A stretch of 64,000 nucleotides of DNA from Myxococcota bacterium (lineage in GTDB: Bacteria; Myxococcota_A; UBA9160; UBA4427). The notes under the pieces were generated by a model. It searched no databases. It was given only the letters and a program-made list of their open reading frames with translations, and had not been told where the DNA came from. Numbering within the stretch: position 1 is the first letter of the stretch; every line of letters starts with the position of its first letter. The position numbers and the translations under genes were made by a program. Shown piece after piece: positions 25,106 through 57,255 of the stretch. The stretch is from positions 373 to 64,372 of the forward strand of contig JAYGDB010000116.1 of NCBI GenBank assembly GCA_046583095.1, read 5' to 3'.

Positions 25106-26743
25106 CTACCGCCTCCGCAGCTTCTTGTGCGAGATGTAGTCGACCATCAGGAAGGACCCGAGCTGGCTTGGGCTGGTGTAGAAGGCGCGTCCCCGGTTGA
25201 TCTGGGTCATCTGTTCGACGAAGCCGAGCAACTCCGGGGCGTCGTCGAGCATGAAGGTGTTGATGGTGATGCCCTGCTTGGTAACGCGGCGGACCTGCTT
25301 CAGGGTCTGCACGACCGCGTGTGGCGAGATGCCGCCGAAGCCGGAAGGCCACTCTACGCGCAGCTGCTCGCCTGCCCGCGTCGGCTCGAAGTACGCCGTC
25401 GGCTGGCCATCCGTAATCACGATGATCTGGGGCGAGGAGCACGGGAATTGGCGGATCAAGCGCTCTGCGATGCGCAACCCGTCCTGCAGGTTCGTAAACG
25501 GATCCGAGACGTCCCAACTCACCTCTGGCAGTTCGCGGATCGAGATCTCCCGGGCCTGCGTCGAGAAACCGACCACGCTGAAGTGGTCACGCGGGAAGCT
25601 CGAGCGGATCAGCTGGTCCATCGCGAGGGCCACGCGCTTGGCGGCCGGGAAACGACCCGCCCAAGACATCGACCAGCTCATGTCCAGGAGCAGGATCGTC
25701 GTCGTCTGGGTCGTGTAGTCCATCTCCCGGACTTCGAAGTCAGCAACCTCGAGAGAGACGGAGCTGCTGCCCAGCGTCTGCCCTTCGCCCGTCCGCCGCT
25801 GCACGCCGTTCATCACCGTTCGGACGATGTCGAGATCCAGGTCGTCGCCGAACTCCCAGGGCCGCGTCTCGTCGGGGCGCGGCAGCCCGACGCCACGAGA
25901 GTTCGTGTCGTGCTGGCCTGCCATTCCCTTGCGCAGCGCCGTGTACACATCGGCGAGCGCGTTCGCACCGATCGCTCGTATCGCCCGGGGCGTGAGCTCG
26001 GGATCCGGACCGCCGCGCAGGTAACCGGCGTTCTCGAGCTCGCTCTCGAGATCGCGGAGCAACACGAACGACTGGGCGGCCGGGTCGCCCAGCAGATCCC
26101 GCAGCTGCTCGGGCGAGATGGGTTCGAGGTTGCCTTCCTGGAGGTTGCGCGCCATCTGTTCGAGGGCCTCGATGCGCTCGCGGATCTCCTGGGCGGTCTC
26201 GTAGTCGGCCTGCTCGCTGCCGCGGAAACGGTCACCCCGCCGCTCGAGGAAGTCATCGAGCCGCTGGATGCGCTCGAGTTCATCGAGGAGCTCCTGGAAG
26301 TCCTCGCCCGCCTGCCGGTCCTCGAAGTCGTGATCGCGCATCCGCTCGATCCGGCTGCCCACGTTCTGGTCCTCGCCGTGGCGTCGATCGAGAAAGTCGT
26401 TCATGCGCAACGACTCGAAGCCGTGCCTGGCGCGCAGCGCCTCCTGTTCGCGATCGAGGATGTCGTCGAGCTGCTGCTCGAGCTCCGACGTCGCGGCGTC
26501 CATGTCGTACTGCTCGTAGAGCGACTCGACCTGGTCCCGCAGCTCACGGACCAACTCCTGGAGTCCCATCACGCGCATGTTCATGCCCGCCATCGGGAAG
26601 CCGTACTCGCGCATCCACTCGAGGGCCTCGCGCGTGTTGAGCCCTTCCATCATGAGGTCCGAGAGCTGCTCGAGAGCGCTCTGGGCGTCCATGCTGAACT
26701 CGTCCAGGGAGCCGTCCCAGCGGCTGTACCGGTACGCCCTCAT
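25106..26743 (-). CDS. VWA-domain protein, partner of the upstream AAA+ ATPase
   Basis: MIDAS 'LLLDMSWSMSW' in the C-terminal half. Long acidic coiled N-terminal half. The ATGA overlap with the ATPase gene at 26740-26743 was verified. Confidence 0.85.
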   Translation of the reverse strand: MRAYRYSRWDGSLDEFSMDAQSALEQLSDLMMEGLNTREALEWMREYGFPMAGMNMRVMGLQELVRELRDQVESLYEQYDMDAATSELEQQLDDILDREQEALRARHGFESLRMNDFLDRRHGEDQNVGSRIERMRDHDFEDRQAGEDFQELLDELERIQRLDDFLERRGDRFRGSEQADYETAQEIRERIEALEQMARNLQEGNLEPISPEQLRDLLGDPAAQSFVLLRDLESELENAGYLRGGPDPELTPRAIRAIGANALADVYTALRKGMAGQHDTNSRGVGLPRPDETRPWEFGDDLDLDIVRTVMNGVQRRTGEGQTLGSSSVSLEVADFEVREMDYTTQTTTILLLDMSWSMSWAGRFPAAKRVALAMDQLIRSSFPRDHFSVVGFSTQAREISIRELPEVSWDVSDPFTNLQDGLRIAERLIRQFPCSSPQIIVITDGQPTAYFEPTRAGEQLRVEWPSGFGGISPHAVVQTLKQVRRVTKQGITINTFMLDDAPELLGFVEQMTQINRGRAFYTSPSQLGSFLMVDYISHKKLRRR

Positions 26744-28152
26744 GCTCGCCCGAATCGAACCCCCTTCGCGCTCACGTCCTTGTTGAGACGGTTCGCCAGG
26801 TGGAGGCCCTCGAGGATGAACTCGATCGCGGCAGCCGTCTGTGCCGGCGAGCTGCCTCCCGCGAGGCGCTCGGCCGCGACTCGAAGTCCATCGATCTCGT
26901 CGAGACCCACCAGATAGTCGGCAGCGGACATCTCGGCAGAAACCTCGACCTGCCAGCCCTCGTCGAAGGCCTTCACCACCGAGTCGAGCTCGTCGGGCTG
27001 CACGAACTCGTCGAACACGACATGGATCGCGCGCCTCACCATGCCTTCGAGAAGCTCCGACTCGCTTCGCTCGACGCCCGCGTACTCGAGCTCGATCTTG
27101 CCGGTCGTGGACGCCTGGAGGGCAGCCAGGTCCGAGATGCGCGGGACCGCCTCGGCCTCGTCGCTGCGCAGCGCGCGTCGCACGGCACTGGCGATCAGAG
27201 TCTCGTAGTTCGCGATGCTCATGCGAACGCTGACCCCCGAAGTCTGGGAAACATCGGGACTGCTGCGCGCCTGGAAGGTGATCTCGGCAACGACCTGCTC
27301 CATGTACTCGGGCATCGAGACGTCGATCCCGTCGGCTTCGGCGGGGGTCGCCTCCTGTCGGACGATCTCGATCTCGGTCTGGCGCTCCAACGGGTAGTGG
27401 GTGCGAATCTGCGCCGCGTAGCGGTCCTTGAGGGGCGTAATGATCCTTCCGCGGCTCGTGTAGTCCTCGGGGTTCGCACTCGCCACGATGAGAAGGTCGA
27501 GGGGTAGGCGCACCCTGTAGCCCTTCACCTGGACGTCGCGTTCCTCCATCACGTTGAACAGGCCCACCTGCACCTTCTCCGTCAGGTCGGGCAGCTCGTT
27601 GATGCAGAAGATGCAGCGGTTGCTTCGGGGCAGGAGTCCGAAGTGGATCGTGTACTCGTCCGAGAGGTGATGCCCCTCGGCGACCTTGATGGGGTCGACA
27701 TCGCCGATCAGGTCACCGATGGAGACGTCGGGGGTGGCCAGCTTCTCGACGTATCGCTCATCCCGATGCAGCCACGAGATCTCCGTCGCATCGCCCTTCT
27801 CGGCCACCTGCTGGCAGGCGAACGCCGACACCGGCGCCATCGGGTCGTCGTTGATCTCGCTCCCCGCCACCACCGGGATCCACTCATCGAGCAGGCCCAG
27901 GAGAGAGCGAATCAACCGGGTCTTCGCCTGGCCGCGCTCACCCAGGAAGATCATGTCGTGACCCGAGAGGAGGGCGTTTTCCACCGCCGGAATCACGCTG
28001 TCGTCGAAGCCCCGGATGCCCGGGAACAGCGGCGTGGCTTCGCGCAGGTGTCGCCGCAGGTTGACCTGGATCTCATCCCGCAGGCTGCGGAACACGTATC
28101 CGGCCTTGTGCAATTCGCCGAGCGTGCGCTCGGCGGGCGGACGAATCGACAT
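26740..28152 (-). CDS. AAA+ ATPase of the Mg-chelatase ChlI / sigma54-interaction-like class
   Basis: 'MIFLGERGQAKTRL' (Walker A variant), 'FCINELPDL' (Walker B-like) and 'ASANPEDYT...GRIITPLKDR'. Confidence 0.8.
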   Translation of the reverse strand: MSIRPPAERTLGELHKAGYVFRSLRDEIQVNLRRHLREATPLFPGIRGFDDSVIPAVENALLSGHDMIFLGERGQAKTRLIRSLLGLLDEWIPVVAGSEINDDPMAPVSAFACQQVAEKGDATEISWLHRDERYVEKLATPDVSIGDLIGDVDPIKVAEGHHLSDEYTIHFGLLPRSNRCIFCINELPDLTEKVQVGLFNVMEERDVQVKGYRVRLPLDLLIVASANPEDYTSRGRIITPLKDRYAAQIRTHYPLERQTEIEIVRQEATPAEADGIDVSMPEYMEQVVAEITFQARSSPDVSQTSGVSVRMSIANYETLIASAVRRALRSDEAEAVPRISDLAALQASTTGKIELEYAGVERSESELLEGMVRRAIHVVFDEFVQPDELDSVVKAFDEGWQVEVSAEMSAADYLVGLDEIDGLRVAAERLAGGSSPAQTAAAIEFILEGLHLANRLNKDVSAKGVRFGRA

Positions 28153-28233: not shown

Positions 28234-29439
28234 TCAGGAGAGATCGGAGAGGTCGTAGCCGCCTTCTCGGCGGAGGCTCTCGACGACGTGGCGGATCACG
28301 AGGAGCACCGAGCCATCGATGGTCGCGTTGTCGACGATCGGGATGTCGGAGCGATCGGCAAGCTCGAGGAACTCCTCCTGGATCTTCAGGATGGCGTCCA
28401 GATTCTCGACGTAGCGCTGGGCACCGCGGCGTCGCTGGCGCTCCTCCCTGGAGATGAAGTGGCTGCGGAAGGCGACCTCATCGAGCCGCGCGACCACCAG
28501 GAAGATCACGTGCGCGACATCCCGATACGCGGAGAGATCGATCAAACCCGGAACCAAACTCACGCCGTCGAGGATCAGGCTCGCGTTCTCGTCGATGGCC
28601 CGGTCGATCATCGCCCGGATTCCCACCGACACCACCGCCGCCTGGGCGTGAAAGCCCGCCAGGACGGGGTCCTGGCCTTCCTCGACCAGCGGGAAGGTGG
28701 CTGGGTGAGCCTCGAACGACGATGCGTGCAGCGCCGGGACGAGATCCGGCGTCAGGGTGATCCGCAGGATCTGCCGGATGGAGTCCGTCGAAGCGACACG
28801 GCTGATGCCGAGCCGCTGTGCGACCTCGAGGGCGAGAGAGGTCTTGCCCGAGCCCGTGGTTCCGCCCAGCAGGATGATGACCGGCTTCTCCGGCTCCTGG
28901 TGCCTGCGCCAGATGAGGAACCGCTCGGCCGTCTTGGGGCCGAAGCGCCGCAACAGAGCCTCGTAGGCGAGACTTCGAAGCTCGCCTCTCGGGATGTCCT
29001 TGCGGGACTCGAGCAGGAGAGACTGCTCGATCCGCGCCGCCACGTCGAAGGCGTCGTTGGGATCGATCGAAGCGGCCAGCAGCGACTGCGACAGGGTGCC
29101 CTTGGAGAACGGCATCGGCGATCGCTGGTCGCTCGTCACGAGAATGCGCCCGACCAGCGGCGGCAGCGGAGGCTGGTGCTCCTGGAGGGCGTCCTCGCCG
29201 AGAGTCTCGCGGAGGAGCTTTGTGAGTTCAGCGCGACTCACCACGCCCCGTCCGACAACCCGTGACTGGACCGCGTCGGCGGTGGCGAGGGCCACCTCCA
29301 CGTCGACGCCACGGGCGATCAATGAATGGACCATGATCCCGCGCATGAACGGGCGGCGCCCTGCGCCGTCTTCGACCACCACCCGCTCGTCTTCGCGTGC
29401 GGGTGTCGTCTTGGGGAGATCCTGTCGCGGGTTCGTCAC
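28234..29439 (-). CDS. 2-phosphoglycerate-kinase-like P-loop kinase with an N-terminal ATP-cone-like domain
   Basis: 'RPFMRGIMVHSLIARGV...' (ATP-cone-like) followed by Walker A 'LLGGTTGSGKTSLA'. The family call is from memory of COG2074-type proteins. Confidence 0.6.
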   Translation of the reverse strand: MTNPRQDLPKTTPAREDERVVVEDGAGRRPFMRGIMVHSLIARGVDVEVALATADAVQSRVVGRGVVSRAELTKLLRETLGEDALQEHQPPLPPLVGRILVTSDQRSPMPFSKGTLSQSLLAASIDPNDAFDVAARIEQSLLLESRKDIPRGELRSLAYEALLRRFGPKTAERFLIWRRHQEPEKPVIILLGGTTGSGKTSLALEVAQRLGISRVASTDSIRQILRITLTPDLVPALHASSFEAHPATFPLVEEGQDPVLAGFHAQAAVVSVGIRAMIDRAIDENASLILDGVSLVPGLIDLSAYRDVAHVIFLVVARLDEVAFRSHFISREERQRRRGAQRYVENLDAILKIQEEFLELADRSDIPIVDNATIDGSVLLVIRHVVESLRREGGYDLSDLS

Positions 29440-29707
29440 GGGAACTGCTCAGACTAACCGATTTGGCGCTCCAGCCGCGCGGCAGTGACCTCCCCGCGGG
29501 CGGATCCCTTTGCCTCGCAAGAGCCTCTCAAGTCGATACAAACCTGTAGGGAAAACACCTGATCCTGCTCGGAGATGCCAGCAAATCGAGACAATAATCC
29601 CCATTCTTGGCTTGACTTTCGTTCAGGTTCGGAGTCTCCTGCCATGGCCTCCGGCTGTTTCGGGGGAGGTCTGCCAGTTTTTGGTATCTCTGGCTGGGAC
29701 AGCGCCG

Positions 29708-30184
29708 ATGCCCCAACGCTCTTCGCCCTTCTATCGAACGCGGGACGTGGTCGAGATCCTCGGGATCTCACGTCGCCAACTCCAGTACTGGGCACAGACC
29801 GACCTGGTGACACCCTCGGACAAGACGCCGGGCGGCCACCGTCGTTACTGCTTCGCCGACCTGGTCGCACTGAAGGCGACCAAGCGACTCATCGACGCCG
29901 GCATCTCCGTACAACGGGTCCGGAAGAGCATCCAGGCCCTGCGCAAGACCCTGCCCGACATCGAGCGCCCGCTCTCCGAACTGGTCCTGGTCGCGACCGG
30001 CGATGTGGTTCTGGCATTCCGCGAAGGCGCTGCGTTCGAGGCAATCTCGGGGCAGGAGTGGGTATTCGAGGTTGCCGAGTTTGAGCGCGAGGTGTCGGAC
30101 TGGCGAGGGACGGGCCTGGCCCAACCCATTCGCCGACCACGCAAGGTCGAGAGCCGGACCGGGAGGCTGCGCGGGACGGGCTAG
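29708..30184 (+). CDS. MerR-family transcriptional regulator
   Basis: ATG at 29708. HTH 'YRTRDVVEILGISRRQLQYWAQTDLVTPS...GHRRYCFADLVALK'. About 158 aa. Confidence 0.85.
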   Translation: MPQRSSPFYRTRDVVEILGISRRQLQYWAQTDLVTPSDKTPGGHRRYCFADLVALKATKRLIDAGISVQRVRKSIQALRKTLPDIERPLSELVLVATGDVVLAFREGAAFEAISGQEWVFEVAEFEREVSDWRGTGLAQPIRRPRKVESRTGRLRGTG

Positions 30185-30232
30185 CCAACCGATTCGAAGT
30201 TCGTGGAGATCGGCAGAAACGGGGGATCTGCC

Positions 30233-31312
30233 ATGAGAACCATCGCAATCGTCAACCAGAAGGGTGGCTGCGGAAAGACGACCACTACCGTCAATCTCGG
30301 TGGTGCGCTCGAGGCCGACGGCAACCGGGTGCTGATCATGGACCTCGATCCTCAGGCCCATGCAACGCTGGCACTTGGCATCAACCCCGACGAACTCGAC
30401 GCCAATCTGTACGAGGTCCTGGCGGAGCCCGAAGGAGAGTCGGAGCTCGCAGGCGTCCTGATCAACATCTCCGAAACGATGGACTTGGCGCCGTCCAGCA
30501 TCGTGATGTCGGCCCTCGAGCAGAAGCTGGCCGCAGAGCGCCACGATGCCAGAACCGAACGGCTTGCCGTGGCGCTGGAGAAGCTCGGACCCGCGTACGA
30601 CTTCGTCTTGATCGACTGTCCGCCGAACGTCGGGCTGCTCACCTTCAACGCCCTGCGGGCCGCCGAGGAGGTGATCATCCCGCTGGAAGCCAGCTTCTTC
30701 GCCGTCGATGGCGTTCAGAGGCTCCTCGAGACCATCGGTCTGCTCTCGGACCGGATTGGCCACGAACTGGACGTGCGGATCCTGCCGACCCTGTACGACG
30801 GGCGCACACGCTACGCCCGCGAGACCCTGGCCGACATCCGCGAACTCTTCAAGGACCTGTGCTTCGACACCGTGATTCGGCAGAACGTGAAGCTGCGCGA
30901 GACGGCGCGTCAGGGCGTCCCGATCGCACGCTACGCGCCCTCCGCGAACGGGGCTCTGGACTACGCGGCGGTCGCTATCGAGGTCGAAGCCGGACAGCAG
31001 TCTCCCGCGGTCGAGGGCGCCGCGAGCCACAGTCTCACGGAGTTGCGAGAGGTCATGGTTCGCTTCAGCGACAGCCAGGCCGGTGACGTCCGGATCGCGG
31101 GCGACTTCAACGGGTGGGTGCCGGACAAGGGCGTTCGCTCGGTGATCGAGGCCGAGAACGGGTCTCGGGTATGGACGAAGATCCTGCACCTGCCGCCCGG
31201 CACGTATCAGTACCGCTACGTCGTCGACGGTGAGTGGCGCGAAGATCCTGTCAACGCGAGCACCGCGCCCAGTGCCACCGGCCGGGTGAACTCGGTACTC
31301 GTAGTACGCTAG
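30233..31312 (+). CDS. ParA/MinD-family ATPase fused to a C-terminal CBM48 / AMPK-beta glycogen-binding-like (E-set) domain
   Basis: Deviant Walker A 'NQKGGCGKTTTTVNLG' and 'LIDCPP'. The C-terminal ~85 aa, 'VMVRFSDSQAGDVRIAGDFNGWVPDKG...WTKILHLPPGTYQYRYVVDGEWREDPVN...NSVLVV', match the CBM48/AMPK1_CBM pattern. Confidence 0.85.
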   Translation: MRTIAIVNQKGGCGKTTTTVNLGGALEADGNRVLIMDLDPQAHATLALGINPDELDANLYEVLAEPEGESELAGVLINISETMDLAPSSIVMSALEQKLAAERHDARTERLAVALEKLGPAYDFVLIDCPPNVGLLTFNALRAAEEVIIPLEASFFAVDGVQRLLETIGLLSDRIGHELDVRILPTLYDGRTRYARETLADIRELFKDLCFDTVIRQNVKLRETARQGVPIARYAPSANGALDYAAVAIEVEAGQQSPAVEGAASHSLTELREVMVRFSDSQAGDVRIAGDFNGWVPDKGVRSVIEAENGSRVWTKILHLPPGTYQYRYVVDGEWREDPVNASTAPSATGRVNSVLVVR

Positions 31313-31435
31313 GAGTCTAGACGGCCGAAACGCCTCGAACTCCCGGCCAGAACGAGCCAACCGACATGACACAGATCACGTTCTCACTTTGGAGCATCGC
31401 GCGGCGGGCCCGCGCGAGAGCCTAGAGCTTCGCGC

Positions 31436-32281
31436 ATGCCTCGCGATCTGGCGGACGTGCTTCATCATTTCATTCCAGAGTCGGGCCCCGTGGGCTCGCG
31501 TGACGCTGCTTCCGAGCGCCGCGGCGCTTCCAAGAGTCGCGGCGCTTCCGAGAACCGCGGCGTCCCGCGCAGGCAGACGCTTCCGATCGTCGGCGTGCCG
31601 CTCGGCGAGCGGGACGTCGTGCGCGCGGCCTTTACCTGGAACCTGGCGGTGGAGGTGGCCCGCGCGGGAGGCCGCACGGCCGTCGTTGCCCCTGACACCG
31701 ATGCCAGCACCGCCCTCTGGCCCGAGGAGAGCACCGGCCCGCTGAGCGCGAACGTCGTCCTCGTACCCGCCACGAACCTCGGCCAGCTGCATCGCGCGGC
31801 CCTGGATATCGCGGAGGCACGGGCGTCCGATGGACCTGCCCTCGATGAGGACGGCCTCGTCTTCGTTCGAATCCCACCCCTGTGGCTCCGCAACTCCCAG
31901 GGTGCGACCGGGCTGCTGCGCTGGACCCTGCTGTTTACCTCTTCCGAGAACCGCGACCTGCTGGAGAGCTATGGGATCGCGAAACTCCTGACCCGAGCCC
32001 TCCCGGAAGCTCGCGTCGGCGTTACGGTGCACGGAGCTCGACGGATGGCAGATGCCGAGGCGGCCTTCTCCCGCCTGGAGCGCGCCACCTCGCAACGACT
32101 CGGCCTGCCTCTTACGAGCTACGGTCTCCTGGTCGACGATCTGCACGTCTACCAGGCCATCGTGGCCCAGCGGCCGATCGGCATGGTTCACCCCCAGTCC
32201 CCGGCCGCCCGTTCGATGGGAGACGTCGCGAAGCTGCTGCTGGAGGACGCCCGGAAACAGATGGACCGAGTGGATGCCTGA
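31436..32281 (+). CDS. Degenerate MinD/FlhG-like protein (Walker A lost) with a basic, repeat-containing N-terminus
   Basis: The C-terminal half matches the MinD/FlhG pattern ('LGLPLTSYGLLVDDLHVYQAIVAQRPIGMVHPQSPAARSMGDVAKLL'). The expected 'GKGGVGKT' position reads 'VPLGERDVVRA'. The N-terminus has 'ASERRGASKSRGASENRG'. Confidence 0.7.
   Translation: MPRDLADVLHHFIPESGPVGSRDAASERRGASKSRGASENRGVPRRQTLPIVGVPLGERDVVRAAFTWNLAVEVARAGGRTAVVAPDTDASTALWPEESTGPLSANVVLVPATNLGQLHRAALDIAEARASDGPALDEDGLVFVRIPPLWLRNSQGATGLLRWTLLFTSSENRDLLESYGIAKLLTRALPEARVGVTVHGARRMADAEAAFSRLERATSQRLGLPLTSYGLLVDDLHVYQAIVAQRPIGMVHPQSPAARSMGDVAKLLLEDARKQMDRVDA
31508..31561 (+). repeat. 18-bp imperfect tandem repeat x3 encoding (A-S-E/K-x-R-G)3
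   Basis: GCTTCCGAGCGCCGCGGC / GCTTCCAAGAGTCGCGGC / GCTTCCGAGAACCGCGGC, read directly. Confidence 0.9.
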
Positions 32282-32852
32282 GAGCGATCTGCACTACGTC
32301 GCCTCACTGCCGCGGCCGGAGCTGCGAAACGCGCTCCGACGTGCCCAGGCCTTCGACCCGCCCCTGCGGATCCTCGCGGAGGACGTCCTGGGCGCCGACG
32401 CGCCCATCGACTTCATTGCGGTCGATCCGGACGGCCGCGTCGTCCTCGTCCTGATCGGGGAAGACGGCGAGGACCAGGAACTCCTGACACAGGCCCTCGC
32501 CCAGCGCGCCTGGGTGCGTCCTCGCATCCGAGACTGGCTGCAGCTCGCTCCGAACCTGGAGCTGTCCGCAAGCGCCCCGGTGGCCGTGTCCCTGCTGTGT
32601 CCGTCCTTTTCGTCGAGCACCCAGGCCGCCGCGGCCGATCTAGGCCCAGACGTGCTGGACCTCTCCACCCTCCGCTGTGTCCGAAACGGCGCGGAGGCGA
32701 CGGTGCTGCTCGAGCGGCTCTCGCCGCCGGGACCGTCAGACCGCAGGCGGGCCGCGGTCGATCCGCCAGCCGAAGGCGGACCCCGCTTCCGGAGCGGGCT
32801 GACCGCGGAGGATCTCCAGCTCACACCCGAAGAAATCAGCGAATTCGACTAG
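32274..32852 (+). CDS. Hypothetical protein, last gene of the ParA module, with a possible nuclease-like (PD-(D/E)xK-type) core
   Basis: The ATG at 32274 overlaps the upstream gene by 8 nt. 'PIDFIAVDPDGRVVLVLIGEDGEDQELL' resembles restriction-endonuclease-fold strands, but no Lys follows. Acidic C-terminus 'LTPEEISEFD'. Confidence 0.55.
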   Translation: MPESDLHYVASLPRPELRNALRRAQAFDPPLRILAEDVLGADAPIDFIAVDPDGRVVLVLIGEDGEDQELLTQALAQRAWVRPRIRDWLQLAPNLELSASAPVAVSLLCPSFSSSTQAAAADLGPDVLDLSTLRCVRNGAEATVLLERLSPPGPSDRRRAAVDPPAEGGPRFRSGLTAEDLQLTPEEISEFD

Positions 32853-33021
32853 TTCCGTGTCGAAGCTGCGCGTCGGCGCGGAACTTGCGCCTAGACCTGG
32901 GGGGACATTTTTCGGCACCGGTGACATTTCGTGACACCTCCTGCACCCATCCCGCCACTCCCTAAAGAGCAGGGATCCCTCGCCGAGAGCGGCAGGGCCT
33001 CTGCGTGGGTCTTGGGAAGTC

Positions 33022-33609
33022 GTGCGAAGGGGGCCTCGGTTGGCGGTTGGGCAGCTCGAGCCTGTAGACGAATCAGACGAAACGCTGGTCGTTCGGGTCA
33101 CGCAGGGCGATGAAATCGCCTTCAGGGAAATCTATGAGCGCTTCTTCAAGCGCATCTACCTGTTCGTCGACAAACGCCTCCGCAATACCGCCGACACCGA
33201 GGAGACCGTTCAAGAGGTCTTCATCAATGTCTTCAACTCGATCGACAGCTACCGCGGTGAGGCGCCGTTCTCCGCCTGGGTATTCGGAGTGACGCGCCGC
33301 ACGATCGCCGGACGCTTCAAGCGCAAGCATCATCCCACGGTGCCCCTCCTGGACGACGACCACGTCACTGCCGCCGTGAATGGCAGCGGCGCGCAGCCCT
33401 CGCCCCTCGAGGCATACGAGTGTCAAGAACTCCTGTCGCAGCTTGAAGCGAAGCTCGATTCCAAGCTGTCCGCGGAGCAGCGGGAGCTGTTCCAGCTGCA
33501 CCACGTGGAAGACCGCTCGATCTCTGAGATCGCTCTCGCCCTCGACAAGACCGAGAACGCCATCAAGTCGAACCTGTACCGGGCCCGGAAGATCCTCCAA
33601 CCGCGCTGA
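33022..33609 (+). CDS. ECF-type RNA polymerase sigma factor
   Basis: Region 2 'ETVQEVFINVFNSIDSYRGEAPFSAWVFGVTRRT'. Region 4 'LSAEQRELFQLHHVEDRSISEIALALDKTENAIKSNLYRARK'. Confidence 0.88.
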   Translation: MRRGPRLAVGQLEPVDESDETLVVRVTQGDEIAFREIYERFFKRIYLFVDKRLRNTADTEETVQEVFINVFNSIDSYRGEAPFSAWVFGVTRRTIAGRFKRKHHPTVPLLDDDHVTAAVNGSGAQPSPLEAYECQELLSQLEAKLDSKLSAEQRELFQLHHVEDRSISEIALALDKTENAIKSNLYRARKILQPR

Positions 33610-33627
33610 CCCGCTAGACTCGGGCCG

Positions 33628-34446
33628 ATGGCCGAGTCGATCTGCTTCGATGCACCGCAGGGTGAAGACCTGTCGATCCTCGAGCGCCCCGCGGAAGGCG
33701 CCGAGACACCCGCTGGTGCCGGAGCCCGCCGCTTCGAGTTCTCGTGCCGCGGAGACCGGGTTCCGCTCGCCGTGCTGGCTCCCGAATCCGAACCGCCGTA
33801 CCCCACGCTGCTGGTGCTGCCTGCACCGGGCGAGGGGAGTGAGCTGTCGAACCTGCAGGGGCTCGACAGCTGGCTCGCCGCCGGCGTAGCCGTCGCTTCC
33901 ATCGAGCTGCCGCTCTTCGGGTCGCGACGCTCCGGCAAGCTCTCCGAAAAGCTCACCGAGTCGGTGGTGGCAGCCGCGCGCGGCGAAGCCATCGACGACA
34001 CCGGTGAGCTTCTGTGGGAGGAGTTCACCCGGCAGGCCGTGATGGAGCTTCGGCGCGGCCTGGACATGTTGGCGGAAGTCTGGGGCGGCGAACCGAGCGC
34101 AAGCGCCTTCGCCGGCGTGGGCATCGGTGCCTCGATCGGAACGCTCTGGTGCGCCGTCGACGAGCGGCCCTGCGGCGCTGTGCTCGTGCTCACTGGGGGC
34201 GGCTTTGGCCCCGCGTCCATCGACCCGACGAGCTTTGTCGCCAACATCGCGCCGCGCCCGCTGCTCTTCGTGAACGAGGAGGCAGCCAAGGCGCGACCTG
34301 GCGCTCCCGCCATCTCCAAGGACCGGGCCATCGAACTGCACGAGGCCGCCGGCGAACCCAAGGAAGTCTCCTGGCGGGCAGCAGAGGCCGGGGACGTCCT
34401 CGACCTCGCGTGGAAGTTCCTCGCGCCCCTGCTCGGGGTGGGCTGA
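33628..34446 (+). CDS. Alpha/beta-hydrolase-fold protein (dienelactone-hydrolase-like) in the position usually held by an anti-sigma factor
   Basis: GxSxG 'GIGASIG'. No TM segment and no HxxxCxxC motif. Lies 18 nt downstream of the sigma gene. Confidence 0.6.
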   Translation: MAESICFDAPQGEDLSILERPAEGAETPAGAGARRFEFSCRGDRVPLAVLAPESEPPYPTLLVLPAPGEGSELSNLQGLDSWLAAGVAVASIELPLFGSRRSGKLSEKLTESVVAAARGEAIDDTGELLWEEFTRQAVMELRRGLDMLAEVWGGEPSASAFAGVGIGASIGTLWCAVDERPCGAVLVLTGGGFGPASIDPTSFVANIAPRPLLFVNEEAAKARPGAPAISKDRAIELHEAAGEPKEVSWRAAEAGDVLDLAWKFLAPLLGVG

Positions 34447-38267: not shown

Positions 38268-38861
38268 ATGGCGATCCTGATCAAGCGCTACGCAAACCGG
38301 AAGCTCTATAACACCCAGACCAGCCGATACATCACGCTCAAGGGAATCGCCGAGCTGATCGACGACGGCGAGAAAGTTCGCGTCATCGACAACGAGACGG
38401 GTGAAGACATCACGAGCGTGGCGCTGTCGCAGATCCTCGTGGACAGCGAACGTTCGAACTCGGACGTCTCCGGCAACGTGCTCTCGCAGATCCTCGGACG
38501 TGGCGGCGACGCCCTGTATGACACGCTTCGCAAGAGCTTCGACGATGCGAGCGAGAACCTCGGCGACTTCCAGGACCGTTTCCGCCGCTTCGTCGCAGGC
38601 GAGGACGACGGAGACGGGGACAGCGCCGCTGCGGACGGACGCGACCCCCGGAAACTGAGAGACTGGATCGCCTACGCGGCGCCAGACTTCGAGCAGATCG
38701 TCCAGAAGTCGATGGAGCGCGTCTTCAAGCTGCTCGACCTGCCGCGCCGGTCGGACATCGAGGCATTGAACGAGAACCTCGAGCGGGTGGCCCAGGCGGT
38801 GGAGACCCTCGAGAAGGTCTACGAGCGCCGCGAGTCGTCGAGCCCTGCGCCCGAGGCCTAG
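38268..38861 (+). CDS. PhaR/PhaF-like protein: PHA-accumulation-regulator DNA-binding domain plus a phasin-like C-terminus
   Basis: The N-terminal 'ILIKRYANRKLYNTQTSRYITLKGIAELI' matches the PHB_acc_N pattern. Coiled C-terminal part. Confidence 0.8.
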   Translation: MAILIKRYANRKLYNTQTSRYITLKGIAELIDDGEKVRVIDNETGEDITSVALSQILVDSERSNSDVSGNVLSQILGRGGDALYDTLRKSFDDASENLGDFQDRFRRFVAGEDDGDGDSAAADGRDPRKLRDWIAYAAPDFEQIVQKSMERVFKLLDLPRRSDIEALNENLERVAQAVETLEKVYERRESSSPAPEA

Positions 38862-47010: not shown

Positions 47011-47982
47011 GTGGCTAGCGAATTCGCCCATCGCCCCGTTTTGCTCGCAGAGAGCGTCGGCCACCTGAATCTGAAATCGGGCGACGTCATCGTAGACGGT
47101 ACCCTTGGCGGAGGCGGCCACGCCGAAGCGATCCTGCACGACACGGATCCGGACGGCCGCCTGATCGGCCTCGACGTCGATCCCGACGCGCTCGAGGCAG
47201 CTGGCCGCAGGCTCGCCGGATTCGGCGATCGCGTTCGCATGGTTCAGGCGTCATTCCGCGACCTCGTTCGAGTTCTCGAGGAACTGGGGATCCCGAGCGT
47301 CGACGGCGTGCTCTTCGACCTGGGGGTGTCCTCGTTTCAGTTCGATCAGGCTGGGCGCGGGTTTCGCTTCTCGGGCGATGCCACCGAAACCGCCTCGACA
47401 CGGCTCGACATGCGAATGGACCCGACGCGAGGCGAAACTGTCGCCCAACTCCTGCGCCATGCCTCCGAGGCGAGCTTGCAGGAGACGTTCCAGAACTACG
47501 CCGAACTGCGCGGCTCCAAGCGACTCGCTCGCGCGATCGTGGAGGCTCGAAGCCAGGCGCCTCTCGAAACCGCCGCCGATCTGCTGCGAGTGATCCGCGA
47601 CGCTCGCATCGGCGGCGGCCGCCGGCACCACCCCGCAACCCGGGTCTTCCAGGCATTGCGAATCGCGGTGAACGACGAACTCGGCGCCCTGCGCGAGGGG
47701 CTGGACGCGGCGGTCACCAGCCTGCGTCCGGGCGGACGGCTGGTGGTGATGTCGTATCACTCGCTCGAGGACCGGATCGTCAAGCGGCACTTCCGGGACG
47801 GCCAGCGCGGCTGCACCTGCCCTCCCCGCACCCCGATGTGCGTGTGCGGCAACTCGGTGACGTGGGAAATTCTCACCCGACGGCCGGTCGCACCGACCGA
47901 CCAGGAGATCGCGGCGAACCCACGCGCCCGCTCCGCTCGCCTGCGGGCTGCCGAACGGGTGGCCGTGGGAGAGGCTGCATGA
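47011..47982 (+). CDS. rsmH: 16S rRNA (cytosine1402-N4)-methyltransferase
   Basis: 'HRPVLL', 'DGTLGGGGHA', 'DLGVSSFQ' and 'SYHSLEDR'. Confidence 0.93.
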   Translation: MASEFAHRPVLLAESVGHLNLKSGDVIVDGTLGGGGHAEAILHDTDPDGRLIGLDVDPDALEAAGRRLAGFGDRVRMVQASFRDLVRVLEELGIPSVDGVLFDLGVSSFQFDQAGRGFRFSGDATETASTRLDMRMDPTRGETVAQLLRHASEASLQETFQNYAELRGSKRLARAIVEARSQAPLETAADLLRVIRDARIGGGRRHHPATRVFQALRIAVNDELGALREGLDAAVTSLRPGGRLVVMSYHSLEDRIVKRHFRDGQRGCTCPPRTPMCVCGNSVTWEILTRRPVAPTDQEIAANPRARSARLRAAERVAVGEAA

Positions 47983-48566
47983 ACCGGCGTCGGACATCGA
48001 AACGGATCCTGGCAACCCGCTCCACCCGCTCCGTGAAGCGACAGCGACCGCGCCACCGCAAGACCTCCCGGCGAGCCACCCGATGGATTGCCCTCGACCG
48101 GCTACGCGCGCGCCTCGGCCGGTCGATCGATCGCTGGGCCGAGCGCACGTCGGATCGCGCGACCGATCCCGGAACCCCTCTCGTCGGCCTCGACATCACC
48201 AGGCTGCCGAGCCGACTCCGGACGAGTTCCTGGGGACCGGTCGCGATAGCGATCGTCGGCGGCGCCTTGTTCCTGGCGTTCCTGCGGATCGACGTGATCC
48301 GCATGGGCTTCACGCTGGCCGGGACGTTCGACGAGACGCACCGTCTCGAAGAGCTCAAGCGCGAGCTCACCGTGGACATGCGGCAGCTGCGGGATCCGGC
48401 TGCGCTCATCCGACACGCACGAGAGTTGGGTTTCCGTCGGGCAGAGCGTCTGATCGAACTCGACGGAAACGGCCCGGTGCACAGGCCCTCTGCTGTCGAG
48501 GAGCCTGCGGGCGCGATCGAACTCGTATCCGCTTCGCCCCGCCGCCCCCTAGGTGAGAACCCATGA
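47979..48566 (+). CDS. ftsL: FtsL-like division protein with a long Arg-rich N-terminal extension
   Basis: The ATG at 47979 overlaps the rsmH stop (ATGA). Single TM 'WGPVAIAIVGGALFLAFL', then the coiled 'HRLEELKRELTVDMRQL'. Position is canonical. Confidence 0.75.
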   Translation: MNRRRTSKRILATRSTRSVKRQRPRHRKTSRRATRWIALDRLRARLGRSIDRWAERTSDRATDPGTPLVGLDITRLPSRLRTSSWGPVAIAIVGGALFLAFLRIDVIRMGFTLAGTFDETHRLEELKRELTVDMRQLRDPAALIRHARELGFRRAERLIELDGNGPVHRPSAVEEPAGAIELVSASPRRPLGENP

Positions 48567-50686
48567 GATCGGCGACGCTGTCCGGTCCGTCGCGACGTCT
48601 TCGGCTGCTCGCAGTTCTGCTCCTCTCCTCGTTCTTGGTGCTGGCGGCGCGGGCGGCACACCTGACGCTTCTCGATTCGCGTGGCAAGGGTCGCGGCCAG
48701 CGACAGATCACCAAGGTGCTGCAACTTCCCGCGCCGCGCGGACTGATCGTCGATCGGCGCGGCGTCGAACTCGCTGTCACGATCCCAGCCCCGTCGATCT
48801 ACGTCGTACCCCACGCTCTCGGCGATCGCAGGCAAACGGCGCAGAAGCTCGCTCATGCGCTGGGGATGGATCCGGCGACCCTCGCTGCGGACCTCGAGCG
48901 GCGAACGCGCTTCGCGTTCGTCAAGCGCTGGACGACGCGAGAGGAGGCGGAGACGATCCGCAAGCTGGATCTACCCGGCGTCGGGATTCTCAAGGAGCCG
49001 CGGCGCGCGTATCCCGCCGGCGCACTCGCTGGACAGCTGATCGGCTTCGCAAATATCGACGAAGAGGGAGTGCGTGGAATCGAGCAGCAGGAGGACCGCG
49101 CCCTGCGAGGCCGGGCACGCACGGTCACTGTCGAACGGGATGCCCGGGGACGCCATCTCGTTGTCGATCCCTCACTTCCACGAGACACCGCGGGCGCCGA
49201 TGTCCGCCTCACCCTCGACGCGAAGCTGCAAGCAGCCGCCGAAGGGGCGCTGGCCAGTCTGGTCGAGCGGACAGGGGCGAAGGGAGGTTCGGTCGTCACC
49301 CTCGATCCGCGCACCGGAGACATCTTGTCCCTCGCCGAGCACCCCCCGACGGACCCGAACGACTTCCGCAGTCTCGACTTCAAGAGCACCCGCTCTCGCG
49401 CGTTCCACGACGCCGTCGAGCCAGGCTCGACCTTCAAGGTCTTCCTCGTCGCGGGCGCTCTCGACGCCGGCGTGATCCAGTCCGACGAGATGATCGAGAC
49501 CTCGCCGGGTTGGCTGCGAATTCCCGGCAAGACCATTCGCGACCACGAGGACTACGGCCGGATCTCCATCGCACAGATACTCGAGATCTCGAGCAACGTC
49601 GGTGCGGTGACGATCACGCAGCGCCTCGAGCCGCGACGCCATTACGAACTTCTACGGCGCTTCGGTTTCGGTCACAGCACAGAGAGCGGATTCCCCCAGG
49701 AGTCGGCGGGCATCCTGCGCCACTATCGGGGCTGGCAGCCAGTAGATCGCGCCACCCTGGCCTTCGGTCAGGGCGTGAGCGTCACGCCCGTTCAACTCGC
49801 GTCAGCCACGGCAGCGCTCGCGAACGGCGGCGTCTGGCAGAAGCCACGGCTCGTCGCGGCTCGTCGCAAGGCGGGTGGCACGTGGGAGGAGGTCCCCCGC
49901 GAAGCAGGCCACCGGGTGGTCAGCGCGAGAGCAGCCGCCGAAACGCTCCGAATGATGGAAACCGTCGTGAGTGCAACCGGGACTGGACGCCGTGCGTCCC
50001 TGCGCGGGCTGCGGGTGGCCGGCAAGACGGGCACCGCCCAGAAATTCGACACCGAGGCGGGTCGCTACTCGAAGACCGACTACCTGGCCTGGTTCATCGG
50101 CGTGGTGCCCGCGAACGATCCCCGGCTCGCAATCACTGTCATGATCGACGAGCCTCAGGGCCGGGCACACGGCGGGGGCGACGCAGCGGCGCCCCTCTTC
50201 GCGCAGGTGGCATCGGCTCAGCTCGCACATCTGGGCATCGTCACCGCACCCCAGTCGATCCGCTCGAGGCCCTTCCGCACGCTGGCGGCGAAAGCCGAAG
50301 AAGAAAAGGCGAGGCGACGGGCCGCAGCCCTGCCAGAGAAGAAGCCCGTCCAGGTCGCGAAGGCTGGGCGCAGTGACCGGAAGGCTATCGCCCCCGCGAG
50401 CCGTCCCGCGAAGGCGGCTCGGAGAGTCGTGGCGGTTCCGCGCGTACAGGCTCCGTCTCCGAAGTCGGTTGCCAAAGTGACTCATCTGGTCCCCGACTTC
50501 CGCGGCGAGACGTTGACTTCCGCTCAGGGCATCGCCGCCAAGGCATCGATCGTCCTGGAACTCCACGGTAACGCGCGGGGTCTCGTCGTTGAGCAGCGCC
50601 CGCACCCCGGAACCGTCGTGACCGGCGACAGCCCCCGCGTGCGACTTCGTTTCACGCTGGACTCACCTCACAGAGAAGAGGGCTGA
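48563..50686 (+). CDS. ftsI: Peptidoglycan D,D-transpeptidase FtsI (PBP3) with a C-terminal basic linker and a PASTA-like domain
   Basis: SxxK 'GSTFKVF', 'SSN' and 'KTGTA'. The C-terminal 'VPDFRGETLTSAQGIAAKASIVLELHGNARGLVVEQRPHPGTVV' is PASTA-like. Confidence 0.92.
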   Translation: MRSATLSGPSRRLRLLAVLLLSSFLVLAARAAHLTLLDSRGKGRGQRQITKVLQLPAPRGLIVDRRGVELAVTIPAPSIYVVPHALGDRRQTAQKLAHALGMDPATLAADLERRTRFAFVKRWTTREEAETIRKLDLPGVGILKEPRRAYPAGALAGQLIGFANIDEEGVRGIEQQEDRALRGRARTVTVERDARGRHLVVDPSLPRDTAGADVRLTLDAKLQAAAEGALASLVERTGAKGGSVVTLDPRTGDILSLAEHPPTDPNDFRSLDFKSTRSRAFHDAVEPGSTFKVFLVAGALDAGVIQSDEMIETSPGWLRIPGKTIRDHEDYGRISIAQILEISSNVGAVTITQRLEPRRHYELLRRFGFGHSTESGFPQESAGILRHYRGWQPVDRATLAFGQGVSVTPVQLASATAALANGGVWQKPRLVAARRKAGGTWEEVPREAGHRVVSARAAAETLRMMETVVSATGTGRRASLRGLRVAGKTGTAQKFDTEAGRYSKTDYLAWFIGVVPANDPRLAITVMIDEPQGRAHGGGDAAAPLFAQVASAQLAHLGIVTAPQSIRSRPFRTLAAKAEEEKARRRAAALPEKKPVQVAKAGRSDRKAIAPASRPAKAARRVVAVPRVQAPSPKSVAKVTHLVPDFRGETLTSAQGIAAKASIVLELHGNARGLVVEQRPHPGTVVTGDSPRVRLRFTLDSPHREEG

Positions 50687-52239
50687 TGCGCCTGTCCGCA
50701 CTGCTCGCAGCGTTGCCGGCCGAGCACGCCCCTCGCAGCTCCCCGTCTTCCGATCCGGTGATTCGCGGGATCACCTACGACTCGCGAAGCGTGTCGCCGG
50801 GCGATCTCTTCGTGGCTCTCGTCGGCACCGTGAGCAACGGACACGACTACCTCGAAGCCGCCCTGAAGCTCGGCGCAGCGGCACTGCTTGTCGAGGACGA
50901 GGCGAGCGCCCAGGAAGCGCTCGAAGCCGCATCCCGATCTACCCCGATCATCGCGGTCTCTGACAGCCGCCGAGCAATGGCTCCGATCGCGGCTCACTTC
51001 TTCGGTGAACCCGCGAGCGAACTCACCCTCGTGGGAATCACGGGAACGAATGGAAAAACGAGCAGCAGTTATCTCATCGAGTCGATCCTCTCGCGTACGG
51101 AGCGATCGACTGGCCTGATTGGGACGGTCGAGATCCGCTACGCGAACGAACGGTTGCGGGCCGTGAACACCACGCCCGAGAGCCTCGATCTACAGCGGGT
51201 GCTGCGTTCGATGCGTACCCAGGGCACCGCGGCGGTCGTGATGGAAGTGTCGTCCCATGGCCTCGAGCTGGGACGGGTCAACGGCTGCCGCTTCCACGTC
51301 GGTGCCATCACCAACGTCACCCAGGATCACCTCGACTTCCACGGAAACATGGAGGCGTATCTCGAGTCGAAGCTACGGCTGTTCCGGGAGCACCTTGTAC
51401 CGGACGGCGTGGCGGTCATCAACATCGATGATTCGTTCGCCCCACGCTCGCTCGAGGCAGCGACCGAAGCCGGGGCTCGCGTGATCCGCGCCACGCGCAG
51501 GGCCGACGTCGAGGCCGAGGTGAAGCTCCTCGAAGCCGAGGTCACACTCGCAGGCAGCCGGGCCCGGCTCCAGCTTCCAGCCGGCGAGATCAACGTCGAG
51601 CTGCCGCTGCTGGGCGACTTCAATCTCGAGAACCTGGTCGTCGCATGCGGAATCGCCGCGGCCCTCGAACTGCCGCTGACGACCATCGCGGAGGGCATTG
51701 CCCGCTGCCCCCAGGTGCCGGGGCGAATGGAACTCGTGGGACCCGAACAGGAAGACGTGCCGACCGTGATCGTCGACTACGCCCACACCCCCGACGCGGT
51801 CGACAAGCTGCTCGAAGCCGTGCGCGCCCTCACCGGCGGACGCCTGATCACGCTCTTCGGCTGTGGCGGCGATCGCGACCGCGCCAAGCGGCCGCTGATG
51901 GCCCAGGCTGTGGCGAAGTGGAGCGACCGCGTGGTCGCCACGAGTGACAACCCGCGCACCGAGGATCCGGTCCAGATCCTCGCGGGCGTCGAAGCCGGTC
52001 TTTCGGATCGTACGCGTGTCGAGCCCGAGGGTCTCGATGCAGCGAACGGCTCGTATACGCTCGAGATCGACCGCCGTGCGGCGATCGATCTCGCCATCTC
52101 CATCGCACGCGCGGAAGACACAGTGGTGCTCGCAGGCAAGGGTCATGAGGACTACCAGATCATCGGGAGCGACAAGCTTCCCTTCGACGATCGCGAAGAG
52201 GCCGGGCGCGCCCTCGCGGTCTGGGGCAACGCGCGATGA
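50686..52239 (+). CDS. murE: UDP-MurNAc-L-Ala-D-Glu:meso-diaminopimelate ligase
   Basis: 'GITGTNGKTS' and the DAP-specific 'DNPR' motif ('TSDNPRTEDP'). Confidence 0.93.
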   Translation: MRLSALLAALPAEHAPRSSPSSDPVIRGITYDSRSVSPGDLFVALVGTVSNGHDYLEAALKLGAAALLVEDEASAQEALEAASRSTPIIAVSDSRRAMAPIAAHFFGEPASELTLVGITGTNGKTSSSYLIESILSRTERSTGLIGTVEIRYANERLRAVNTTPESLDLQRVLRSMRTQGTAAVVMEVSSHGLELGRVNGCRFHVGAITNVTQDHLDFHGNMEAYLESKLRLFREHLVPDGVAVINIDDSFAPRSLEAATEAGARVIRATRRADVEAEVKLLEAEVTLAGSRARLQLPAGEINVELPLLGDFNLENLVVACGIAAALELPLTTIAEGIARCPQVPGRMELVGPEQEDVPTVIVDYAHTPDAVDKLLEAVRALTGGRLITLFGCGGDRDRAKRPLMAQAVAKWSDRVVATSDNPRTEDPVQILAGVEAGLSDRTRVEPEGLDAANGSYTLEIDRRAAIDLAISIARAEDTVVLAGKGHEDYQIIGSDKLPFDDREEAGRALAVWGNAR

Positions 52240-54701: not shown

Positions 54702-54717
54702 AGGCGAGAAAGGAAGG

Positions 54718-57251: not shown

Positions 57252-57255
57252 GGTC

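Follow-up and report, generated by a model that had tools for sequence, protein, structure and literature searches.

A ParA-type ATPase with a built-in CBM48 module and a pseudo-ATPase partner: a candidate system for positioning storage-polysaccharide granules in bacteria

We describe a conserved bacterial gene cassette and propose it as a good candidate for a system, the first of its kind, by which cells place or tether granules of storage polysaccharide. The cassette occupies positions 29708-32852 of a 64-kb stretch of Myxococcota DNA (contig JAYGDB010000116.1; the whole stretch is called the window hereafter), where four open reading frames (ORFs) stand in series on the plus strand. The second of these, gene 2, encodes a ParA ATPase that ends in a carbohydrate-binding module of family 48 (CBM48), an architecture that we write as ParA::CBM48. 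It is followed by gene 3, which encodes a MinD/FlhG-like protein without a P-loop, and by gene 4, whose product has a predicted nuclease-like fold; gene 1 encodes a MerR-family regulator. The core of the system appears to be ParA::CBM48 together with a partner that bears a ParB-like peptide, usually joined by the nuclease-fold domain.

Bacteria use ParA/MinD ATPases as general-purpose positioning machines, for chromosomes, plasmids, carboxysomes, chemoreceptor arrays, flagella and division sites alike. Glycogen is the carbon store most widespread among bacteria, and to our knowledge no system that positions it has been described, nor any characterised ParA with a cargo-binding module of its own. 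The first-pass annotation of this DNA knew of no ParA system with a carbohydrate-binding module either, and our full-text literature search agrees, having found no description of such a ParA or of a ParA-type glycogen system.

Gene 2 joins a Soj-type ATPase to a carbohydrate-binding module

Gene 2 (30233-31312) begins with a ParA/Soj-type ATPase domain (amino acids (aa) 1-253, 30233-30991), recognised by Pfam and by matches to solved structures. Its Pfam matches are AAA_31 (1e-49, aa 1-180), CbiA (5e-20) and MipZ (7e-14), all above their cut-offs. Every score against the NCBIfam equivalogs ParA_partition, RepA and MinD is below cut-off, and the protein therefore belongs to none of these named subfamilies. 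Matches of the ATPase part to the PDB range from 3e-44 to 3e-38 (ParA 8ray, 3e-44; HpSoj 6iub, 4e-41; TtSoj, 2e-39). The match to MinD has an E-value of ~1e-17, as against ~1e-40 for Soj, and judged by its sequence the domain is Soj-like and not MinD-like.

The deviant Walker A motif KGGCGKT is intact (NQKGGCGKTT), just as the first-pass annotation had read it, and the Walker A' and Walker B segments are IMDLDPQ and DFVLIDCPP. All 20 ParA::CBM48 proteins compared have both lysines of the motif (signature and P-loop) and the catalytic aspartate, equivalent to HpSoj D41. The ATPase thus looks functional. In HpSoj the DNA-binding environment consists of N196, K199, K227, V229, K230 and K247 (PMC6393308). 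When these positions are mapped through the alignment, position 196 is Arg or Lys in 19 of the 20 proteins, position 199 is Arg in 18, and position 230 is Lys or Arg in all of them; binding of gene 2 to nucleoid DNA is plausible. No amphipathic membrane helix is evident in the gene 2 or the gene 3 protein.

A linker (aa 254-281, 30992-31075), recognised by length differences in the alignment, leads to the C-terminal module (aa 282-358 which, with the stop codon, span 31076-31312). The claim that this segment is a CBM48 held up in the profile hidden Markov model (HMM) search: it matches AMPK1_CBM (PF16561) at 1e-12, with 48.5 bits against a gathering score of 26.8. CBM_48 (PF02922) matches weakly (17.9 against a cut-off of 22.4), as does the pullulanase X25 domain. 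Searched alone with phmmer, the last 90 aa of the protein retrieve structures of the AMPK beta1 and beta2 CBMs at 5e-08, and also SEX4, LSF1 and pullulanase.

To see whether the sugar site is kept, we set the C-terminal parts of 19 ParA::CBM48 proteins against the CBMs of AMPK beta1 and beta2 in one alignment. Overall identities among the 19, which represent Myxococcota, a deltaproteobacterial metagenome-assembled genome (MAG), Omnitrophota and several Planctomycetota orders, are 33-74%. The sugar-contact residues of AMPK beta1, which we take to be W100, K126, W133, L146 and N150 (a list reportedly going back to Polekhina and colleagues in 2005), served as the guide. The equivalents of W100 and W133, which stack on sugar, are invariant in all 19 proteins and thus across at least three phyla. 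The N150 equivalent is Asn in 18 (His in L014) and the K126 equivalent is Arg or Lys in 18 (Gln in L018), and the L146 equivalent is variable, being Thr, Ala or Val in Myxococcota and Phe in Planctomycetota. Across Myxococcota, Planctomycetota and Omnitrophota the sugar contacts are maintained although overall identity is only 33-47%. Because the binding-site residues persist while the rest of the domain has diverged, the carbohydrate site is likely to have been retained, and the module looks functional as a carbohydrate binder. The gene 2 protein has no signal peptide, so the ligand should be a cytoplasmic alpha-glucan, for which glycogen is the obvious candidate.

The linker between ATPase and CBM is 80-170 aa longer in the aligned proteins from Planctomycetota. 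These Planctomycete linkers (L019-L028, L037) contain a helical segment and a conserved motif, KLADFYGV or KIDDIYGI, directly before the CBM.

Gene 3 encodes a pseudo-ATPase with a ParB-like N-terminus

Gene 3 (31436-32281) has no match in Pfam or NCBIfam. A word-indexed search found 519 homologues, and an exhaustive profile search found 1693 representatives at E<=1e-3; conservation was counted in an alignment of 29 homologues. The alignment divides the protein into three parts: a 15-residue N-terminal peptide (MPRDLADVLHHFIPE, 31436-31480), a variable low-complexity linker that cannot be aligned (31481-31576) and a conserved domain of ~230 aa (aa 48-281, 31577-32281).

The peptide follows the pattern MPRDLADVLHyFxPE, in which R3, L5, V8 and P14 are invariant. 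More divergent members of the family start with KRLGKGLEEVSHLFLS, RRLGRGLSDVSNLFLS or KKLGRGIEEISHHFIS and have an exact LGRGL or LGKGL; the general reading in distant relatives is RLGRGLxxVSxLFLS. In ParB, LGRGL is the motif near the N-terminus that touches ParA. In the structure of HpParA with DNA and HpParB(1-10), the ParB peptide reads MAKNKVLGRG; its L7 and R9 are conserved among ParBs, and the R9A change in HpParB abolishes ParA binding (PMC11229316). Arg3 and Leu5 of gene 3 align with the Arg of the ParB motif and the Leu that follows it, a similarity at the level of the motif only. We infer that the peptide is ParB-like, contacting ParA and activating its ATPase. This ParB-type motif and the gene linkage described below are our grounds for reading gene 3 as the ATPase-activating partner. 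The earlier suggestion that the pseudo-ATPase is the partner of the ParA has thereby become much stronger, with the peptide and with the position of the gene after ParA::CBM48 in unrelated contexts and phyla. We cannot say the same of the basic repeat (RGASKSRGASENRG) that had been singled out near the N-terminus: it sits in the linker, which varies in length and sequence among homologues and is modelled at a predicted local distance difference test score (pLDDT) of ~50. The repeat is not conserved, and the conserved part of this region is the N-terminal peptide.

The rest of the protein is a MinD/FlhG-type domain, identified by AlphaFold2 (AF2), Foldseek and profile search. The AF2 model of gene 3 (pLDDT 86, predicted template-modelling score 0.80) retrieves FlhG (4rz2, 2e-12, template-modelling (TM) scores 0.60/0.65), FleN and MinD (1hyq, 3e-09), and the profile search reaches genuine P-loop ParA/MinD proteins (~1e-13), its lowest-ranking hits being CbiA/ParA proteins of that kind. 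In gene 3 the P-loop is replaced by VPLGERDVVRAAF, at a position that reads GERDVVRAAF across the 29 homologues, and the Walker B Asp is replaced by Arg (VFVRIPP), again across all 29. With both Walker A and Walker B lost, gene 3 is a pseudo-ATPase and stands outside the MinD/FlhG enzyme family. The first-pass annotation was thus right about the loss of the P-loop but not in assigning to gene 3 only the C-terminal half of the fold, since the model keeps the whole of it. Neither a ParB/Srx CTPase domain nor a helix-turn-helix (HTH) was found in gene 3, which lacks Pfam and NCBIfam matches and has a MinD-like fold. It is not a ParB, though its N-terminus would work like that of ParB.

Gene 4 encodes a predicted nuclease-fold protein

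Gene 4 (32274-32852) also lacks any match in Pfam or NCBIfam. We found 184 homologues and counted invariance in 32 of them. The alignment shows a conserved domain of ~150 aa (aa 1-150, 32274-32723), a variable linker and an acidic C-terminal peptide, FRSGLxxxDLxLTxEExxEF (32787-32852), in which F172, R173, L176, L181 and E187 are invariant. A similar tail, LIELTDEEVGEFMEF (LTDEEVGEF), is present in a distant homologue at locus L162.

The AF2 model of gene 4 (pLDDT 87) retrieves NucS/EndoMS with Foldseek (2vld, 3.5e-4, TM scores 0.44/0.38), along with SfsA, Card1, EcoO109I and BstEII, and we assign it a PD-(D/E)xK (restriction-endonuclease-like) fold with moderate confidence. E36 and D46 are invariant in the 32 homologues, and the distant homologue at L162 has Ser in place of D46. 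No (D/E)xK is present on the third strand (VLVLIG), so the protein is probably a non-catalytic derivative of a nuclease. The first-pass annotation listed gene 4 as unknown; it now has both a predicted fold and a conserved peptide.

An ATPase together with a nuclease-fold protein could suggest anti-phage defence, and we considered and rejected such a role for the cassette: PADLOC and PHROGs return nothing for genes 3 and 4, the PADLOC match of the MerR protein to mad1 is at the level of the HTH only, and the cassette sits in conserved chromosomal synteny.

The genes stay together across phyla

We counted linkage in metagenomes only where the contig has room for the neighbour. Among 80 metagenome loci found through gene 3, a CBM is encoded upstream in 65 of 65, ParA is upstream in 41 of 41, and gene 4 is downstream in 58 of 58.

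The decisive evidence for a module is linkage in distant lineages. Three divergent gene-3-like proteins, related to gene 3 at the profile level (P0503, P0478 and P0504), are each encoded directly downstream of a ParA::CBM48 gene, among neighbours that differ from locus to locus (DUF3467; a tetratricopeptide-repeat protein; a small excisionase-type HTH protein). At loci L161 and L162 a gene-4-like gene follows the gene-3-like gene, the one in L162 scoring 48 bits (4e-16) with the gene 4 profile. The first-pass annotation had proposed to check whether all four genes co-occur in this order in relatives. ParA::CBM48, gene 3 and gene 4 are so linked in the clade and at some of the distant loci; the MerR gene shares in this linkage within the clade only, and not in all its members.

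Some Planctomycetota may carry genes 3 and 4 as a fusion. Four Phycisphaerae-type loci have, downstream of ParA::CBM48, an ORF that starts with RTQQALDQLADLFLT or RRNLSEISHLFLS and contains a P-loop-less MinD-like segment. With hhalign this segment pairs with the gene 3 family over 175 columns (E 9e-5, probability 60%), and the extended profile gives it at most 21 bits; the end of the ORF aligns co-linearly, and weakly, with gene 4. The gene 3 part of such a fusion is supported and the gene 4 part is suggestive. In L017 the ParB-like peptide is apparently joined directly to a gene-4-like domain, with profile scores of 1.7-2.2 bits that lie under the inclusion threshold. A search with the N-terminal peptide motif found it in 4 of 13 distant loci. 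In Sedimentisphaerales, Pirellulales, Kuenenia and Omnitrophota the loci are surrounded by different genes (GH5-like, response-regulator and secreted-protein genes), with no recognisable partner nearby; because the nearby genes differ, the partner there, if any, would be encoded elsewhere.

Further observations concern individual loci. After the ParA::CBM48 gene of L014 there is a gene-3-like ORF of ~165 aa (L014:7074-7600, plus strand; AQRLGDVLDLLLGE... FAVPLAPGDVLRRRAVSALARALA) that tblastn missed. In L167 (1-2563) a gene-3-like gene (P0505, with no clear LGRGL) and a gene-4-like gene (28 bits) lie beside a PP2C/SpoIIE-like gene. This 2.5-kb contig has no ParA::CBM48, so the pair of pseudo-MinD and nuclease-fold proteins may work in other contexts too. 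The Phycisphaerae loci L026, L028 and L037 share a divergently oriented Maf-like gene on their upstream side, and a gene for a response-regulator receiver lies upstream in L017 and L024.

The cassette is common in marine and sediment MAGs of Myxococcota and is found also in Planctomycetota (Phycisphaerae, Sedimentisphaerales/Anaerohalosphaeraceae and Kuenenia) and in Omnitrophota. Given this spread over three phyla, it is not a curiosity of one genome.

The MerR gene is a clade-specific companion

Gene 1 (29708-30184, 158 aa) encodes a MerR-family HTH protein, as had been annotated: Pfam gives MerR_1 at 8e-15 and MerR at 9e-09, both over their cut-offs. Its scores against the NCBIfam equivalogs (CarH, HspR, RacA, CueR and others) are far under theirs. 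The HTH (aa 9-77) is followed by a small conserved C-terminal domain that reaches to ~aa 130 and by a variable basic tail, and conservation within the clade spans aa 10-130. The best match among solved structures is the repressor CvkR/Alr3614, itself of MerR type (7xn2, 4e-09).

The MerR gene is present in all 34 metagenome loci with room for it. It is absent from L013-L015, three of the 15 related Myxococcota genomes, and from the neighbourhood of every distant ParA::CBM48 locus examined. The first-pass annotation had made it the DNA-bound or regulatory component of the system. With this distribution it is not a core component, and the simplest reading is a clade-specific transcriptional regulator. 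A role in binding a centromere, like that of the MerR-like RacA, is conceivable, but no repeat array speaks for it: the short intergenic repeats of the locus occur in two copies, which is chance level, and form no iterated centromere-like array.

A promoter-like element lies ~95 nucleotides (nt) upstream of the MerR start codon (29590-29617, plus strand; GACAATAAT ... TTGACT, with TTGACT at 29612-29617). It emerged from an alignment of the upstream regions of 16 related loci, at least 80% of which share AC-AA, GG.TTGACT and a CT further downstream. Its promoter function is only inferred, because a generic sigma-70 scan detected nothing.

Proposed mechanism and alternatives

The domain identities, the conserved residues and the cross-phylum linkage of the genes are observations, and from them we hypothesize that the cassette tethers glycogen granules to the nucleoid, or positions them there, under the control of an ATP switch, a proposal to which we give an even chance. 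Gene 2 would bind ATP and dimerise like Soj, and the dimer would sit on the nucleoid through its retained basic patch. It would show two CBM48 modules on flexible linkers which, by gripping glycogen, would make an ATP-dependent bivalent bridge between granule and nucleoid. The N-terminal peptide of gene 3, with Arg3, would dock on the ParA dimer and bring about ATP hydrolysis and release, and through release the tether would be dynamic, with granules spread or handed over instead of frozen in place. The MinD/FlhG domain of gene 3 and the gene 4 protein (a nuclease-derived, probably non-catalytic domain with an acidic C-terminal peptide) would form the body of an adaptor, and MerR would control transcription of the operon in this lineage. 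That the proteins bind DNA and glycogen, that the peptide stimulates the ATPase, and what follows in the cell are all predictions from sequence. More tentatively, and short of an even chance, the cassette may define a new class of ParA, in which the granule is a direct binding surface of the ATPase (as a new cargo, or as a third matrix besides nucleoid and membrane), CBM48 binding is ATP-switched, and a composite ParB analogue made of a dead MinD and a dead nuclease couples granules to the chromosome.

Several points weigh against the tether. Genes of glycogen metabolism were not found in the window or in the distant neighbourhoods; the sole nearby sugar gene, PGM/PMM, is syntenic within the clade. 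HpSoj positions K227 and K247, two of the four DNA-binding lysines, are non-basic in ParA::CBM48 proteins. Synteny within the Myxococcota clade proves little by itself and could be vertical inheritance, because it takes in unrelated flanks as well (ECF sigma factor, ATP-cone kinase-like gene, MoxR/VWA and PGM/PMM). Gene 4 gives no significant BLAST or HMM match to the C-termini of the Planctomycete downstream proteins; L014 and L015 lack it altogether, and L014 has a minimised gene 3. A cargo binder on the ATPase and not on the adaptor departs, as far as we know, from every characterised ParA system, and the proposed model leaves the globular parts of genes 3 and 4 without an explained role.

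Alternatively, glycogen might be not the cargo but the matrix or landmark. The CBM48 would then correspond to the membrane-targeting helix of MinD, ATP-dimerised ParA would coat the granules, and the gene 3/4 adaptor, whose nuclease-derived domain may bind DNA, would couple something else, such as a chromosomal region or a protein complex, to the granules or away from them. A surface-binding element at the C-terminus of the ATPase is what MinD has, the adaptor has globular domains of its own that must bind something, and the direct link between peptide and gene-4-like domain in L017, a weak match, suggests that the gene 4 domain is the target-binding end; the two non-basic lysine positions fit as well. 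We nevertheless regard this arrangement as unlikely. The other three DNA-contact positions keep a basic residue in almost every protein, a sign that binding to the nucleoid persists; gene 4 has degenerate catalytic and probable DNA-contact motifs, which its distant relatives do not conserve; and no candidate for a second cargo is encoded nearby. The module might also be a regulatory sensor in the manner of AMPK beta, by which glycogen modulates or sequesters a ParA that positions the chromosome, the division site or other proteins, so that the cell cycle is tied to carbon reserves. Indeed, the glycogen-sensing modules of AMPK beta are the closest sequence relatives of the domain, the ATPase is near to chromosomal Soj (39-48% identity in tblastn segments of ParA genes without a CBM, and strong matches to Soj structures), and the dcw cluster of cell-wall and division genes lies ~14 kb away. 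However, the ATPase gene of several phyla has beside it a dedicated partner with a ParB-like peptide, as would be expected of a self-contained system; the distant loci show no linkage to genes for division or segregation, and proximity to dcw is a feature of one clade only. We judge a sensor to be quite unlikely.

Two further readings do without a glycogen-binding positioner altogether. E-set/CBM48 folds have been reused for protein contacts, and in AMPK the beta CBM is packed against the kinase domain as well, so that the beta-sandwich of gene 2 could be a protein-interaction domain that binds no carbohydrate, in a cassette that positions a protein cargo. The absence of linked glycogen genes and the varying L146 equivalent would agree with this. 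Yet over very large evolutionary distances, at which the rest of the domain has diverged, neither sugar-stacking Trp has changed and the Asn has been replaced in a single protein, as expected of a binding site that is still in use, and we consider this reading improbable. The first-pass annotation had itself raised the chromosomal Soj: gene 2 might be a plain Soj/ParA whose ParB and parS lie elsewhere, the CBM and the neighbours being incidental. Similarity to Soj structures is high, and the public annotations, which are generic, read "AAA family ATPase" or, in line with such a role, "chromosome partitioning protein". Yet the 64-kb window has no parB, no ParB box II motif (GERRxRA) in any frame and no second ParA or other protein with a deviant Walker A; its one parS hit has three mismatches and is reached by 31 of 100 shuffles, which is chance level. 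Moreover, gene 2 has a conserved partner of its own that bears a ParB-type peptide, and fusion and partner co-occur across phyla. In a complete Myxococcota chromosome of 6.25 Mb the gene lies at 2.73 Mb of the record, not obviously close to the origin, which is a weak argument because the record need not start at the origin. Taken together, a plain chromosomal Soj is hardly credible.

Were the cassette to define such a new class, glycogen granules in Myxococcota, Planctomycetota and their relatives would be actively organised and inherited, and not distributed at random. If it does what its domains suggest, ParA systems would gain a new class of cargo and a new design, in which the motor itself carries the cargo binder and a pseudo-ATPase serves as activator, and there would be a direct handle on the active partitioning of storage granules. 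The glycogen-granule hypothesis is easy to test: the Trp residues of the CBM, Arg3 of gene 3 and the Walker A lysines each offer point mutants.

Layout of the locus and its surroundings

The window is a chromosomal segment with a GC content of 66-68%, and the nearest relatives of its proteins are in Myxococcota MAGs. It contains ffh, phaR and the dcw cluster, and no tRNA genes. The arrangement of the cassette is as first described, with four same-strand genes (29708-30184, 30233-31312, 31436-32281 and 32274-32852) separated by short gaps of 48 and 123 nt and, at the last junction, an overlap of 8 nt (32274-32281).

A scan of 29300-33200 detected no intrinsic terminators and no sigma-70 promoters, and Rfam at E<=1 gave no RNA element across the locus. 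The repeat search found an inverted repeat with 16-nt arms and a 3-nt loop directly past the gene 4 stop (32851-32885, plus strand). It is possibly the end of the operon; it has no T-run, and the terminator scan made no call there. Another inverted repeat, an imperfect one whose 17-nt arms are 76% complementary (31396-31447), sits between genes 2 and 3 and overlaps the start of gene 3, where it could affect translation or relative expression.

Downstream of gene 4, two tandem 19-nt repeats (GGGGACATTTTTCGGCACC / GGTGACATTTCGTGACACC, 32901-32938) precede the gene for an extracytoplasmic-function (ECF) sigma factor (33022-33609) and may be an ECF promoter or operator. The sigma gene is followed by one for a 272-aa protein without a Pfam match, possibly an anti-sigma factor or partner (both genes within 33022-34446, plus strand); the two are syntenic with the cassette in the Myxococcota clade only. 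Divergent from the MerR gene, 28234-29439 (minus strand) encodes a protein of 401 aa that weakly matches ATP-cone and P-loop kinase domains (Zeta_toxin/AAA_18) and is syntenic across the same clade but absent at the distant loci. Beyond it on the minus strand (25106-28152) lies a conserved pair that overlaps by 4 nt, a MoxR-like AAA+ gene (26740-28152) and a VWA-domain gene (25106-26743).

At 38268-38861 (plus strand) the window encodes a PhaR-type regulator of polyhydroxybutyrate/polyhydroxyalkanoate (PHB/PHA) accumulation, and the organism therefore probably makes PHA granules too, which is background to a storage-granule hypothesis. The dcw cluster (mraW, ftsI, murE, murF, mraY, murD ... 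murC; 47011-58662, plus strand) starts ~14 kb downstream of the cassette.

Comparison with known systems

The cassette belongs to a known kind, that of a ParA/MinD ATPase with an activating partner. Chromosomal ParABS (HpSoj 6iub/6iuc, TtSoj 1wcv/2bek) shares with it the deviant Walker A motif, the signature lysine, sequence similarity at 1e-39 to 1e-44 and three basic Soj DNA-contact positions, and the partner of gene 2 starts with a peptide that resembles that of ParB at the level of the motif and contains a conserved Arg (of the LGRGL type in relatives of gene 3). Unlike Soj, gene 2 carries a C-terminal CBM48 and has no parB next to it, and in place of a ParB/Srx CTPase domain, an HTH and parS there are a P-loop-less MinD/FlhG domain and a separate nuclease-fold protein.

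In the carboxysome-positioning pair McdAB and in other orphan ParA/MinD-adaptor pairs such as ParC/ParP, PpfA/TlpT and PomXYZ, a ParA-family ATPase and a small dedicated partner position cytoplasmic cargo other than DNA, and the partner has a short N-terminal peptide that contacts the ATPase, followed by a disordered linker. The likeness is one of working principle only: in these pairs the adaptor binds the cargo, none is known to have a carbohydrate-binding module, and the partners are unrelated to genes 3 and 4 in sequence and fold. MinD offers a different parallel, since its C-terminal appendage sets the surface for the ATP-bound dimer, and the CBM48 of gene 2 could be an analogue of it. 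The gene 3 model superposes best on FlhG/FleN, and FlhG too has an N-terminal activator peptide; in contrast to MinD and FlhG, however, gene 2 is Soj-like, and gene 3, lacking Walker A and B, cannot be an ATPase.

The module itself is of the same family (PF16561/PF02922) as the AMPK beta CBM, SEX4/LSF1 and the N-domains of isoamylase and branching enzyme, with which it shares the two Trp residues and the Asn. In those proteins the domain belongs to a kinase scaffold, phosphatase or glycoside hydrolase, and here to a ParA ATPase; an Arg takes the place of K126, and the L146 equivalent is variable. PhaM of Ralstonia eutropha, which is not known to be an ATPase, ties PHB granules to the nucleoid and so helps to distribute them among daughter cells. 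It is unrelated in sequence and a conceptual parallel only; the coupling proposed here would be ATP-switched. What sets the cassette apart from the known systems is a binder on the ATPase itself, a dead MinD/FlhG partner with a ParB-type peptide and an associated nuclease-fold protein that is probably dead.

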